Notes: a model not told the origin generated them from the sequence alone. A stretch of DNA of 64,000 bases from Flaccisagitta enflata (GCA_965153355.1 OZ231126.1:27528001-27592000), one strand, 5' to 3'. Shown: positions 3,401 through 9,400, counted from the stretch's first letter. A program made the numbers and translations.

Positions 3401-6400
3401 CGCATCCTCCTCCTCCTCCGCCAACGCGCACCATCAACTCCACAATCAACAGCAAAACCAACAACATCAAAAGAATCGACACCACGGCCCCAACCTCAAA
3501 CAACAGCAGCAACAACAACAAAGAGGCGGATCGAGTTCATCCTCGAAAGGCGGTGGTTCCAAGGGAGGAAGCGGCCCTTCGTCCCGGCACGGAAGTCCTT
3601 TCAATGGCACGGAAGCGGAAATGAACGACGCTAATCACGCGATGAACGGAAGCGGCGCTCAAACGTCCACCTCTCCCGCCGCGGGAGACGCCTCCACCTC
3701 GGCTCACATTATTCAGGATATCGGTATTTAGATTTGGAAATATTTCGCGTCCTCATCCTGGCCTCGCGCCGGAACCAGTTCAATAGTATTTGCCCTGGAT
3801 GAATTTGCCAAAAATTATATTTGTTTGATTTGTTCTGCTTGCCGGAGGAAAAATATGAGTAGCAACAATTTCTAATTTTTAAGTTGAAGGAAAGCTAAAA
3901 ACAACTTCGTAATTGATTTTCCCGCAAGACGTAAATATTTTGGCTGAAAAAAGAGGGCCTGAATTGTCCCGGATAAAATCTTCTCCAATGTTCCGTCAAT
4001 AACTGAGCTGAGACGTCAATGAGAGTGAGACGGATCGAACCATCCAGTCATAATACTCATGATATTACATCCACTCCTCCCAGGCTCATCGTCGAGTAGT
4101 CATTTGCGAACCAGCAACGGGAGCGGAGGCGTGTTCAACCTAACTGCGTCGTCCGTCATGACTTCGACGGCTTTGGCTTCTTTCAACGGCGCCCCCTCCT
4201 CTTCAGCCGAAAATGACAACAGCCAAACCGCCATCGAAGATTGTGAAGAAAAGATGGACGAGGACGACGAAGGAATGGGTAAAATTAGTTGAAAATTTCG
4301 TGGTTGTTGATTATCGGCTCATGGACCCACTTAGGCGTGCTAAAGCAACATTTTCTGATGTCTTTCTTTTTAGGAGCGACAAAGCACCTCTATAACTGGC
4401 TGTCCGTTGGCTGGTCGGTTGGTCTGTCTGTCTGTCACGCATTTGTTCGACGATCCACACGTCGCACCTTATTGGCCTGCTTGGCCTTGTTCTATCTTCT
4501 GTCATTTGTTCTACTAGGCTCTACTAACTTGACCTTTCAGTCTTTACTACAATGCACCAGCAATTTGAGGCCACTCTACCAGCTGTTAGTAAACTACCTG
4601 TGTGTATTTTGTAACTTCATTAGTCAAAGCATAACCTTTGTGCGATACTAGCAATGATCTCTGGCCTTTTCATCCCTTCCACTCAACCAGAAATCGATGG
4701 TGGTGATAGCACGACGAATTCAGCCAATTCTCACTCTAGCTCTCCGTCTCTCTCCGTCGCCGCTCCGTCCCTAACCGCGTCTTCGATCGGTCCAGCCGCC
4801 GCCTCCACGCTGCCGCCGTCCCTTCATCTCGCGCCTTCTCCCAACATCGTCGTCGACTCCGACGCTGCCTCCAATGCCGCCACCACCACCACCACCATTA
4901 CCAATATCCCTGGATCTCCTTCCTCCCCTTCTGGTCTCCCCACCGCCAATAGACATCACGTCACACAAAATACAACAGGTTTCATTTTCTTTTGCAAAAT
5001 ATCTACACGTAAATTCAATGTGAACATGTACACTTATACCGGTATCATTAAAGCTGTAAAGCTATCTACGCATGTTATATCGAGTATATACAATGTGAAA
5101 AGAGTTTATTTCTCGCGACGTTGGCTACTTTCGATGTGCTCTGGTTTTATGCGCTCCGGTTATAGATTTGGCCGTATTCACACTTCTCCTTGGGGAATTA
5201 GACTTGGTACGATTCGCACTCGCTCCTCCGAGTTTCTCCAGTTCATAATGCGCAGTTCTCGCCTGGAATTTTGTGAAAATGTTATCGATAAACATTGGCC
5301 AGTTTGGTGAGTACTAGGTGGCAATCGAACCCCTTTGATTTCTTCAAATATAAACATCTCTGCTTATTTGGTCATGGATACATATACAAATTTTATGGTT
5401 GAATTTCGCCGAAATATCGTCTCTCCAAGTGCTTACGTTAAATTTAAACTCGCGGATATCCATCGGTCCGATTCCAATTGTGATGTTACTGCCGATGCCG
5501 GAAAGTTTGGGTGGCGGGGCCGGCGGCGAATGCCTGTCAATATCGCGCAAAAGATGAAAAATGAAATAAATCAAAGAATTGGTGCAATATGTCTATATTG
5601 GCATTATCCGTCTCCATTGATTATCGATTACCAACCCTTTCCTATCTTAACATCCAATCGTGTAAACGCTACAATTCACACCAAACAGACAGCGATTTAA
5701 TAGCCGATGTAAATAAACCGGTTGTGACGGCGTGACGACATTTTGGAAGGTTTGCCACCAGGCGGAGTGACGCTATGGCTAGACGCGGCTGTTGGTGAAA
5801 GCCTAGTCGGGGAGTTGGAAAATCGGTGTTCCGCGCAGAATTTGCACCTGAAACAACAATGGACGGTCTTTTAAGTATTGCTGGCAGATAATTTGGGATG
5901 CAACTGGTAACAAAACGTTTACGCTGACGCGATGGGAATCAATTTCTGCTACTGCTAGTGCTCTCACAAATTTCCGCGCTCCTTGTCTCTTTGTATCTGG
6001 GGATTAAATGCAGGGGATAGGGGGGGGGGAGAACGAACCATATTTTGTGCTTCTCGGCCATGATGAAACTTTGCTCCCCAATGACGGGCTTCTTGCACGT
6101 GTGGCATTGCATGCATTCCCAGTGACAAATGAAGTCGTCGAACAAAAACTCCTCCGGATGTTGCCCGTCTGCGAATTCTTGGGGGAATGAAGGCCGAGGG
6201 GGGGGGGTGGGGAAGTCGTTGAATAGTACTAATCTACCCATTCCTTTCAGTTGCCAACCATATCCCCCCCCCCTCTTCTCAAAGTATCAAATCAAAACAG
6301 TGAATCTTTCCAATAAACAATGAATACATCCAATTGAAGAAATGAATGAAGCTCATCGACTCTGCAAACTAACTGAAGGCGTTTTCCAAAACCATCTTGC

Positions 6401-9400
6401 TAGATGGACTGGTGGAATTCTTTCGACCGGGTCTCATCTTGGGGTCCACGCCAAGTTGATTCTTCGTGATCGCCAAAGCTTTTTGTAGCGATGAGGCTGA
6501 AAGGGCGGCTTCGTCTGGAATGTAGGAGAATTAGGTGACCAACTCGTACAGTCCGTCCTATCAAGAATACCCACTTTTACACCGTAATCACCTTCCGTCT
6601 CGTTCTCATTCTTCTTCAGCGGTCCCTTGCAGACGTGACAGATTTCCATGTTGTAGATGTGTTTGAAGCATTCTTGACAATATTGTTTCTTTATTGTCTG
6701 TCAAATGCAAAAGCGTGGCGAGATTTTTTGTCACGCAATCACGGTCAAAATCTCCACCCCGTCGATAAGTTATGTTAGTCGATTTACTTTTCATCCTAAA
6801 TGCGATATTTTTAAATTTTAATGATTCATCTTGGATTTTCCCAACCAAAATATTTTTCTTTTCCTCTTCGACGTCCTCTTCGATTTCCTCTTCTCCTTGG
6901 CTTTGCTCGTCCGTCGTCGATAATTCCGACCTGGATTTCCTAGATGTACTCCTCTTTCTGCCGGTTCCTTGCTGAGAAGAGCTTCTGCTCTTCCGACTCC
7001 CTTTTCGGTGTGATCTCCTTCCTCCTATTTGCAGAAATGAGGATGAATTTAGCTGTCCTCAGGGGTTTGCATACACTTTTGAGGCTGGATACACGGCTAC
7101 CGAAGTTGTGTGCGGATGGGCAGGAGTGGTGATAAAAAAGACTAACCAAGCATTTGGGCAGGAGCGGTAATGTTTCTTAGATCTACGGTTTTCTTGTTAC
7201 TGATGTGTTTTTTCTTTTTGTTTTCTTTTTCTTTTTTAACGATTGGTATTTATTACGAATTAATGTTTTTATTTTTAATGAGAGGACTCTGTTGGAAACA
7301 AGTCATCATTGACTTTTACAGACCATCCTCCGACGCAACTCTTACAATTATCAAGTTGTATTTCTTTGTCGTCGAAATAAATTCATCAAATTCATCAATG
7401 CAAAAAATACCGAAAACACTAAAAAAAGCAAGGTGATACCGATCGACATAGCGGGTTGTAGAGTCAAATGCACGCGACTAAAAAGTCATCCGTTTGGGAT
7501 CTTTTCAAGAGGCGATCCTATCGATAGGTAGCGCGCAGAGGCGCGCGCTTTCGGAAAAGACGTTGTATACAGGTTCATTACCGGGTGATGAGTTCCTCGG
7601 GGGTGAGGGACTTTGTGAACTCCTTCCACTCTTCTTACTCTGGACACTCTTTTGGCCCAACGACGTAGAACTCCGCGTAGACGAGTCGGCCACCGTGCCG
7701 CTCAATTCCATGGTTTCCCCCGCTTCCTCTTCTTTCACTGGTTCGTCAGGTTCGTCTGTAGTATTTTGGTGATGGAATTTGATTAGTCTGTGACTCTGTA
7801 TGATTTCTTGAAAAAAACGTCACAGGGAAGGTTTGGTTGCCGAAGAGCCCATGTCGACCGGAAGTTCTGAATGTTTCTCTGCTTTTCAAGTCGGGGGCTT
7901 GAAATTGAACTGAGCTGCAACATTCTGCGTTTCTCTACCACGATAAATCATTACCGAGCGATAGCATGTGTGTGGATTCGACGAGGCTTCTTCCGCATTC
8001 GTCGCAAACATCCACCAGTTCCACGCAACGACGGTGATACTTTTTCCCTGTCCATTAGAATTTTACTTTAAGTTAAAAATTATTCTGTCAACAAAAACCA
8101 TTATTCTATGAATAATGAACACTCAGATCGCCTCGCGTTGGCCTATGATACCTTTATAGATTTTCCCGTGATTCTCTTCGATGGGAACTTTGCAGTAGGG
8201 ACATCGTTCGCCGCTTTCCATGAGACACGGCTCGCAGTGGAATAAAGTTCCTTCTTTGTTTTTGAAGAACTTAACTTGAAAGTCACCCAGATGGCGTTGA
8301 CAGCGTATACACTGTAGTATTTACGATATTGATTTGTGAAGAAGTCTCAAATAGAGAATATCAATATTTTGGCTATAGTGACGGTTCACCAAAATATTTT
8401 GATGTTTAACGGAAGTTCTGTAAAGTTTTGAGATTTCGTTTGTCTGAACGCCGAACTATCTGTAAAGCTCAAATGGCCGTGAAAGGCTTTCCTTTAGGTA
8501 AAAATAGTCATAAATTCCACCGACACCTTGAGGCAGTCGTTGTGCATGGGTTTATTCTCACATCTTCTCGCGTCATCGTAGTTCTCGATGATTTCCCTGC
8601 AAACGGCGCATTGAAGTTTGCCGCGGATTGCCAGGCTCTCCAGCGGGATTCCTTTGTCCTAAACAGTCGAAGATTAGGCCGGTAATGATCATTAGTATTA
8701 TTCAGTGGACCGTACGTTGTTACTACTCGGGTACGGTTGAATTAAGGATTGCTAGATATTGATCTCAGATCCTAAATCTAAGTCCTTGTCAATTTTCATT
8801 TTTCTCTTTTATATGCGGCCAATCCGAAGGTAGTAACGGCATGAGCTCTAGCTTGAACTAATCTGCTTGAATTTGTTCCTGAAAGATACACACATTTTAA
8901 CTCTTGATTCTTGAAAATTTTGAACTTCTAGGGCCAAAAGCCCCCCAAAGCCCTTTTTTTTTTTGAAAAAAAAGTGGGGTTCATTTGATAGGAAATTGCT
9001 TGATTCTAGATCCAAAATCTTGTAATTTCACTTTTTTCAAAAAAAAATTAGAAAATTTTTGTGTCGGCCATATTTCAAAAGAAAGTTTAAAGATTCTCCT
9101 GCACGCCACGGGGGAGGCTTTCATAGGTCAAGAAAAATTCTCGGTCATAATGGCGAGTGGTTTGGGCTTCAGGAAGGTTCACTTGATCACTCTATACCAA
9201 AATGAAAATTTTTTTTATTTCAAAATTTTTTTTAAATGCCGTTAAGTGCCGTAAAAAGCCGTAAAATTGGCCTTTTTGACAGTTTTTTTGTTCCAAAACC
9301 GCCGCTGTGGTCAAAAGATGGGCAAACGATGATTATCTGGCACAAAGACATATTCATGCATAAATACAGGCCAACCCGTCATCATTCAATATCATTTTAT

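Follow-up and report, generated by a model that had tools for sequence, protein, structure and literature searches.

The minus strand of a 64,000-nucleotide (nt) stretch of the Flaccisagitta enflata genome (GCA_965153355.1 OZ231126.1:27528001-27592000, the whole of which is called the window here) carries a real, expressed gene of 12 exons, encoding a protein with three LIM-type units, the second and third of which (LIM2 and LIM3) have long inserts between their zinc ligands. It is probable, if well short of certain, that LIM2 and LIM3 are LIM double fingers with loop insertions. Eight zinc ligands are found in LIM order in each of LIM1, LIM2 and LIM3, in the window protein and in two relatives, P0009 and P0002, and the pieces flanking the inserts resemble parts of LIM fingers. 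Profile matches, collinear alignment and, for LIM3 only, AlphaFold2 confidence support the reading of these flanks as halves of LIM fingers. A preliminary description of the window, made from its sequence alone, had proposed that LIM2 and LIM3 keep their eight ligands around large exon-encoded low-complexity inserts, and in this it was correct.

A twelve-exon gene and its transcripts

The transcript runs from about 10437 to 4971, with a coding sequence at 10384-5125 (1590 nt, 529 amino acids (aa)). Translation of the minus strand in three frames between 4800 and 9200 gave 11 exons that were joined via canonical splice sites, with the stop at 5127-5125. A twelfth exon, at the 5' end, was recovered from transcript data; it contributes the ATG at 10384 and 34 codons, and its donor is ATA|GTGAGT at 10283/10282. 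In-frame stops lie upstream of this ATG at 10447, 10459 and 10480, and the N-terminus that follows from it, MPWKF..., is also the N-terminus of the full-length homologue P0009.

Six public marine metatranscriptome or plankton RNA runs contain 9-31% of the sampled words of 5125-8751, a share close to that expected with the exons alone present, and transcript contigs from X1 and X2 (study P1) and X5 (study P2) were placed on 4600-10600. All 11 introns appear in the contigs of these three runs as CT..AC joints on the plus strand (GT..AG on the minus), 10 of them in every run and the intron 8311|8527 in two of the three. One X2 contig of 1754 nt goes from a poly-T loose end at 4971, the poly(A) site, through every exon including the insert exons and into the first exon, thus the 5' and 3' exon groups belong to one transcript; poly-T loose ends before 4971 are found in both X1 and X2 (contig pieces 4971-5261). 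That the gene model is an artefact, with two adjoining genes run together or intronic open reading frames mistaken for exons, is so improbable as to be negligible, as it is refuted by this single spliced contig with its 12 exons and open frame, and by homologues on contigs of 1642-2088 nt that encode the same collinear protein. The exons are as follows, in order of transcription.

First exon, 10283..10437, minus strand: 5' untranslated region and coding sequence 10384-10283; joint 8657|10282 in X1, X2 and X5, with contig pieces 10282-10437 and 10282-10416
Exon A, 8527..8658, minus strand: end of the N-terminal helical region and finger 1 of LIM1 (CAVC-x18-HNDC); on its own a weak match to positions 1-28 of the Pfam LIM profile
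Exon B, 8152..8311, minus strand: finger 2 of LIM1 (CIRC-x21-CEPC), a 7-residue linker and the start of LIM2 finger 1 (CPYC...); 81-83% identical to P0002 and P0001
Exon C, 7955..8047, minus strand: HRRC-x6-CDEC and a conserved 13-residue strand, the last canonical piece of LIM2 before insert 1; 100% identical to P0002
Exon D, 7582..7755, minus strand: 174 nt, phase 1-1, the opening half of insert 1, which is acidic and then Ser/Thr-rich; joints 7755|7955 and 7023|7581 in 3 of 3 runs
Exon E, 6846..7024, minus strand: 179 nt, phase 1-0, the latter half of insert 1, which is basic (Ser/Arg/Lys block) and then poly-acidic, ending KKNIL; the match to P0005, a genomic fragment of another species, stops at the same boundary (KKNVL)
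Exon F, 6592..6697, minus strand: closing pair of LIM2 (KKQY-CQEC-F; the exon starts TIKKQY), a 9-residue linker and the first knuckle of LIM3 (CHVC); 82-91% identical among three species and aligned to a LIM-LIM junction of P0006, a canonical tandem-LIM protein
Exon G, 6374..6514, minus strand: 141 nt, phase 1-1, most of insert 2, including a conserved helix-like S-x-LQKALAI; joints 6514|6592 and 6177|6374 in 3 of 3 runs; P0004, from another species, has the same exon limits
Exon H, 6039..6177, minus strand: the pair of strands that precedes the His ligand, then HWEC-x2-CHTC and the larger part of LIM3 finger 2
Exon I, 5719..5847, minus strand: closing CKFC of LIM3, a C-terminal helix and a variable Ser/Pro-rich tail
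Exon J, 5437..5533, minus strand: a conserved C-terminal 19-residue motif, then YELE, common to three species with a segment identity of 50-54%; the motif has no Pfam match
Exon K, 4971..5262, minus strand: end of the coding sequence (stop 5127-5125) and 3' untranslated region to the poly(A) site at 4971

Whilst the transcripts bear out the preliminary gene model, with 11 of 11 introns seen, its start at 8751 did not stand, as exon A covers 8658-8527 and a further 5' exon had been missed, and exon H had to take its acceptor at 6177 from the transcript joint and the homologues, giving the reading ...ENAFKFADGQ.... The two alternatives that had been raised against that model, of separate 5' and 3' genes or of insert exons that are always skipped, are not borne out by the 1754-nt contig. 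Exons D and G were rightly called symmetric (7755-7582, 174 nt, and 6514-6374, 141 nt, both phase 1-1) and could be skipped in frame; a frame check agrees that loss of exon G would leave CHVC-x30-HWEC.

No joint that skips exon D or exon G is listed in the X1, X2 and X5 contigs, which can drop rare isoforms, and the dominant contigs of all three runs carry every insert exon. Among joints with canonical ends, 7023|7638 is the single alternative; it uses a GTAAGA donor inside exon D (7639) and removes 57 nt in frame, 19 residues becoming 1. This donor is minor, with a depth of 5.3 against 17.2 in X1 and of 2 against 7.7 in X5, no occurrence in X2, and 29 letters on the shorter side of the joint. 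The non-canonical joints 7172|7438 and 7172|7444 (TT..AT) and 9097|9905 (CC..TG) were put down to repeats or to other organisms and left out.

A plus-strand gene has a 5852-nt intron (4979-10830) that contains the entire LIM gene in antisense orientation. An X5 contig covers 4690-4978 of this host gene and ends in a CAG|GT donor, its loose end being 10831-10860 after a tttcag acceptor, and the LIM transcript, which ends at its poly(A) site at 4971, shares 8 nt with the host exon. Within the first intron of the LIM gene, 9022-9222 and 9826-10071 are transcribed in X5 at depths of 49 and 26, higher than the LIM exons, with many mismatches and with the odd CC..TG joint 9097|9905; these pieces probably stem from a repeat or from a related element in other organisms. 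A stop-to-stop open reading frame of 161 aa is found at 9753-10238 on the minus strand, and a (CA)n tract lies directly upstream of the LIM gene.

Ligand spacings, inserts and relatives

The ligand pattern of the protein is CAVC-x18-HNDC-x2-CIRC-x21-CEPC-x7-CPYC-x17-HRRC-x6-CDEC-x137-CQEC-x9-CHVC-x77-HWEC-x2-CHTC-x19-CKFC, to be set beside the widely quoted LIM consensus CX2CX16-23HX2CX2CX2CX16-21CX2(C/H/D) (PF00412). The spacers of LIM1, 18 and 21, are within this consensus. In LIM2 the finger 1 spacer of 17 is in range and the finger 2 spacer, 137, 118 and 117 in the window protein, P0009 and P0002 respectively, is outside 16-21, whilst in LIM3 it is the finger 1 spacer (77, 70 and 78, in the same order) that is outside 16-23 and the finger 2 spacer of 19 that is in range. 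The inter-finger spacer is 2 in LIM1 and LIM3 and 6 in LIM2 in all three species. LIM1 was rightly called canonical in the preliminary description, and the spacings first read from the DNA, x17/x6/x137 in LIM2 and x77 in LIM3, are exact on the spliced coding sequence. The region from CDEC to CQEC is encoded by the end of exon C, all of exons D and E and the start of exon F, and the stretch from CHVC to HWEC mostly by exon G.

A word-based search with exon B gave two contigs (1642 and 2088 nt, too short for introns) whose proteins have 454 and 467 aa. A cluster look-up added P0009, a full-length form of 525 aa, and the two full-length relatives, of 525 and 467 aa, are transcript-like and keep both inserts. 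When 1.84 billion representatives were searched exhaustively with phmmer, 7 matches came back at E <= 0.001, namely the query, three generic LIM proteins and three short genomic gene fragments (P0003-P0005) that end at the exon limits of window exons E, G and H. No orthologue with this architecture had been recognised in the preliminary description, and no named one is present among those 1.84 billion representatives or in the other databases searched, the members of the family being without names. Two scans of metagenome contigs gave 590 and 218 pattern matches with 0 confirmed relatives, and a search of the ESM Atlas with P0002 found generic LIM clusters only, with scores of 0.86-0.88, all below 0.9. 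Judged from these searches this is a small, lineage-restricted family, known from a handful of unannotated marine sequences.

The ligands are kept at 24 of 24 positions in the window protein, P0009 and P0002, at an overall identity of 54-59% between the two relatives, and on this comparison the ligand pattern is not a product of chance. The finger segments are overall 76-100% identical, and the insert lengths are similar across species (137/118/117 and 77/70/78). Segment by segment, the identity between species is:

LIM1: 76-81%
LIM2 finger 1 through CDEC: 83-85%
16 residues after CDEC: 94-100%
Core of insert 1: 26-34%
Before CQEC to after CHVC: 82-91%
Most of insert 2: 10-40%
Helix-like S-x-LQKALAI piece of insert 2: 41-65%
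LENAF... through HWEC: 79-83%
LIM3 finger 2: 77-83%

Insert 1 is 8-10% hydrophobic and 22-29% Ser+Thr and has a conserved basic centre; despite the low identity of its core it keeps its blocks of charge, the net charge by thirds being -5/+11/-4, -6/+11/-9 and +1/+12/-11 in the three species. The loop had been called RS-like, which is too strong a term given its 5-11 RS/SR dipeptides and the lack of an RRM in the protein by Pfam, so that the protein is not an SR protein, nor the insert an RS domain, in the accepted sense; a Pfam match to PNISR is weak (E 0.021-0.026) and below its cut-off. Insert 1 is better described as a Ser-rich block polyampholyte of acidic-basic-acidic order. The N-terminus consists of about 50 helical residues that have no zinc ligands, with three LIM-type units after it, an arrangement that is not that of the FHL proteins, and no Pfam domain other than LIM is above cut-off in the protein.

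Flanks as probable halves of LIM fingers, and competing readings

The Pfam LIM profile scores 35.1 bits in P0009 and 32.6 bits in P0002, against a gathering cut-off of 22.9, with three stretches in each protein of which LIM1 is the best. LIM1 alone is matched at full length, and there are partial matches of LIM2 (P0001 44-88) to profile positions 1-41 and of exon H to positions 18-46. A home-made LIM profile was also used, built from five LIM domains of the unrelated proteins P0006, P0007 and P0010; a homologue search with residues 110-290 of P0006 for more canonical LIM domains returned the query alone. In the intact proteins this profile finds LIM1 at full length (34.6-38.1 bits) and LIM2 over profile positions 1-42. 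In LIM3 it finds the part after the insert over positions 14/17-55, and the CHVC piece over positions 2-15 with 4.2-4.5 bits in the window protein and P0002 and no match in P0009; the two pieces of LIM3 are complementary in profile coordinates.

When the inserts are excised in silico, with the cut points scanned, the scores over profile positions 1/2-55 rise to 31.1-33.8 bits for LIM2 and 34.1-35.5 bits for LIM3, about the score of LIM1. A comparison with and without the inserts, which the preliminary description had put forward for PF00412, thus favours split fingers on the home-made profile. The best-scoring joins restore the canonical x17 in both LIM2 and LIM3. Among 446-511 control joins, made with same-length pieces of the same protein, only 0-3 score as well, all of them equivalents from other LIM domains. 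Adding the CHVC piece raises the score by about 11-13 bits.

Alignment to the canonical tandem-LIM protein P0006 gives a similar picture, with MAFFT placing it collinearly across both inserts. In BLASTP, residues 51-153 of P0009 match P0006 (E 8e-12) with a 4-residue gap exactly at VELV, from which the x6 spacer of LIM2 is an x2 spacer plus four residues, whilst residues 261-290 match a LIM-LIM junction of P0006 (E 0.11) and residues 337-368 the adjoining first finger (E 0.014). The LIM chains of FHL proteins with solved structures match, by sequence, LIM1 and LIM2 finger 1 (E 0.0049) and the part of LIM3 after the insert (E 0.14).

Structure prediction is clearer for LIM3 than for LIM2. A first AlphaFold2 run (P0002, a 7-row alignment) had a mean predicted local distance difference test (pLDDT) of 41.5, with even the canonical LIM1 poor. 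The second run, with P0009 and an alignment to which P0006 and P0010 had been added, had a mean of 56.1; the values that follow are for 10-residue blocks of this run, in models that hold no zinc. LIM1 and LIM2 finger 1 reach 79-90, the linker block 271-280 has 54, the CHVC-KGPL block 281-290 has 84, insert 2 has 44-54, and residues 341-370 and 381-390 have 78-88. The secondary structure of LIM3 is a knuckle, the insert (helices 301-311 and 329-335), a hairpin, a knuckle, a hairpin and a helix, and apart from the insert this is the order of elements in LIM1. Helix 301-311 corresponds to the S-x-LQKALAI piece and has a low pLDDT, and exon J forms three short strands (pLDDT 53-67) in the first run and none in the second. 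A CHVC knuckle with a pLDDT of 84 between disordered stretches suggests that it is packed against LIM3 in the model. The N-terminal half of the model finds 2xqn_T with Foldseek (E 3.2e-5), and with VIA-align finds 7d2t_B (Z 8.7, root-mean-square deviation 4.9 over 104 aligned residues, model 47-161) and 2miu (Z 8.0, deviation 2.6 over 60 residues, model 48-111). Complementation of fragments of P0002 (the N part of LIM2, the CQEC-CHVC piece and the C part of LIM3, with 4 Zn) gave 0.28 and 0.14 against a mark of 0.34, with alignments unused, and speaks neither way on closure.

A number of points weigh against LIM2 and LIM3 being closed double fingers. LIM2 violates two of the defining consensus spacings, having x6 for x2 and x137 for x16-21, and its CQEC piece adds just 4.4-6.4 bits to the excised join. 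The home-made profile rests on five sequences, and the collinear BLASTP pieces across the inserts are weak singly (E 0.014 and 0.11). In AlphaFold2 the CDEC of P0009 has a pLDDT of 66, insert 1 and CQEC are below 50, and closure of LIM2 finger 2 is not predicted, so that of the pairings suggested in the preliminary description only LIM3 has both halves confident. Docking of CHVC onto LIM3 is itself only suggested by the confidence values, and the fold matches cover model residues 41-161, with most rows at 41-160, so LIM3 is barely sampled by them.

The same weakness in LIM2 would be expected if only LIM1 and LIM3 were full domains and LIM2 had decayed, with finger 1 alone folding and CDEC and CQEC either without a ligand or bridging two chains through zinc in a dimer. 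AlphaFold2 is confident on finger 1 and not on CDEC or CQEC, the x6 spacer is odd, the CQEC gain is small, and proteins of repeated half-LIM fingers do exist, such as P0008 (264 aa), which has repeated single CPGC-x17-WH-x2-C units and no second fingers. However, no part of the protein is better conserved than CDEC with the 16 residues that follow it and the stretch leading up to CQEC (88-100%), which is hard to explain if these ligands are unused, and the excised join gives the canonical x17 and a full-length profile match. The low pLDDT at CQEC is discounted, because P0006, the sole canonical comparator, is out of register there in the folding alignment and the value is thus not evidence against closure. 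A decayed LIM2 is considered unlikely, though there is something to be said for it. It is very improbable that CQEC-x9-CHVC forms a zinc knuckle or ribbon of its own, so that the protein would have an independent C4 site besides one LIM domain and two half fingers. A C4 site could have the spacing C-x2-C-x9-C-x2-C, exon F taken by itself has weak matches to Pfam DZR (E 0.0032) and DZR_2 (E 0.02), and the stretch from CHVC to the last CxxC has a weak Trm112p-like match (E 0.028-0.11), but all these are below gathering cut-offs. A CxxC-x7-CxxC likewise joins LIM1 to LIM2 and the LIM domains of tandem LIM proteins, where there is no zinc site, and the segment aligns to just such a junction in P0006. 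An independent site would also leave the invariant CDEC and HWEC without partners, and the CHVC block has a high pLDDT when CQEC and the linker block between them do not.

A further proposal, made in the preliminary description and compatible with the other readings, is that skipping of exon D or G, or phosphorylation of the Ser/Arg/Lys block, toggles the folding or binding of LIM2 and LIM3. The exons are symmetric and skippable in frame, a minor in-frame donor in exon D is used in two runs from two studies, and insert 1 has its 22-29% Ser+Thr around a conserved basic centre. Set against this, the alternative donor has a low depth and 29 letters on one side, the three runs, in which rare isoforms can escape the contigs, have no skipping joint, and all insert exons are present in the dominant contigs and in both homologues; the exon-skipping part of the proposal thus finds no backing and a switch of this kind is very doubtful.

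If LIM2 and LIM3 are LIM double fingers with loop insertions, as is preferred here, the inserts would sit at loops where the LIM fold tolerates insertion. For LIM2, some 120 additional residues from exons D and E would be placed where the last beta-hairpin of finger 2 turns, at its tip, from the THMLSL strand to the KKQY-CQEC strand, and four more (VELV) in the inter-finger spacer, and in LIM3 about 60 extra residues, mainly from exon G, would lie between the first CxxC knuckle and the hairpin of the His ligand. We infer that the fingers close, bind zinc and put their loops to use, with each zinc site closing across its own insert, which would bulge out as a loop. The loop of insert 1 would be disordered, Ser-rich and acidic-basic-acidic, that of insert 2 would have one short conserved helix, and the long conserved flanks of insert 1 (...STHMLSLDEP and EEKKNILT-KKQY) may build an extended two-stranded stalk that bears the polyampholyte loop. 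With three LIM domains and linkers of 7 and 9 residues the protein would be a tandem-LIM adaptor, to which the loops may add a docking or regulatory surface. It is also conceivable, although we hold it to be quite unlikely, that LIM2 and LIM3 are closed only conditionally, and that the LIM2 loop, tuned by phosphorylation and by the 57-nt donor, sets an entropic or electrostatic cost of closure that gates target binding by the array, for example to strained actin. If true, this would be a regulated fold-switch inside a LIM domain, a mode not found in the literature searched.

Surroundings, known LIM systems and significance

The DNA of the window is eukaryotic and has GT-AG introns along with numerous microsatellites. 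Upstream of the host-gene exon at 4690-4978, a plus-strand open reading frame at 2469-2990 has a partial CTLH match (PF10607, E 2.5e-4, below cut-off), and at 58316-59116, also on the plus strand, there is a gene for Mediator subunit 8 in a single open reading frame (PF10232, E 7.8e-59), the nearest Atlas clusters being animal MED8, which puts the window in a metazoan. Long simple or tandem repeats occupy 900-2300, 10990-11200, about 29150-29750 and 43350-44100, and include a CA-rich array (His/Thr runs if coded, GC skew 0.56), a (GA)n-type tract and a 21-nt array that is open in several frames.

The protein is like the canonical tandem LIM-only proteins (FHL, LMO, PINCH and the LIM regions of testin) in its serial C2HC and C4 double fingers with short linkers, and its best fold matches are PINCH1 LIM4-5, TES LIM2-3, LMO2 and LMO4. 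Unlike them it has inserts of about 120 and about 60 residues inside the fingers of two of its three domains, and a 6-residue spacer in LIM2. The best match by sequence to a solved structure is to FHL1 (2cup_A, E 0.0049) and is weak; in contrast to FHL the window protein has no N-terminal half LIM, and beyond generic LIM similarity it has no relative among the 1.84 billion representatives. A study of LIM arrays reported to bind stressed actin describes at least three LIM domains joined by linkers of 7-8 residues (bioRxiv 10.1101/2020.03.06.980649). The window protein resembles such strain-sensing arrays (the zyxin, paxillin, FHL and testin classes) in its three LIM domains and its linkers of 7 and 9, whereas one linker is 9 and not 7-8 and the inserts have no counterpart there; by this analogy binding to strained actin is a lead and not a finding.

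Long disordered loops within a conserved fold have a parallel in the arrestin domain of yeast Art1, where disordered loop insertions are reported to regulate localisation and activity (PMC6880881). The likeness is in the length and poor conservation of the loops, whereas the Art1 fold is a large beta-sandwich and the fold here is a zinc mini-domain of about 55 residues, in which an insert of twice the domain size is more striking. The 'LIM-like' domains of plant DA1 (bioRxiv 10.1101/090563) and of human NDP52 have four CxxC/H pairs and an off-consensus resemblance to LIM. These domains are unrelated in sequence to the window protein, and the sources searched do not report inserts of 60-120 residues that split them. 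The LIM-L region of NDP52 was reportedly later described as two separate zinc fingers, which calls for caution in the reading preferred here. A survey of the LIM superclass defines the domain by eight ligands and leaves 59 proteins unclassified (PMC3305314). Split, interrupted or atypical LIM domains with inserts inside the fingers were not found in the literature searched, whose supplements lay outside the search and may hold cases.

Few protein-interaction modules are as common in animals as the LIM domain, whose tight ligand spacing is treated as defining. The inserts account for the single clear LIM that profile annotation sees in this protein, and for gene finders largely missing the gene. 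It may be that a zinc mini-domain of about 55 residues can carry inserts of up to twice its own size at two loop positions, each insert with exons of its own. If the fingers close, the limits of tolerance of the LIM fold would be wider than has been assumed, the two insert positions would be natural sites for grafting loops onto LIM scaffolds, and in this family a domain would have been elaborated by insertions the size of exons.

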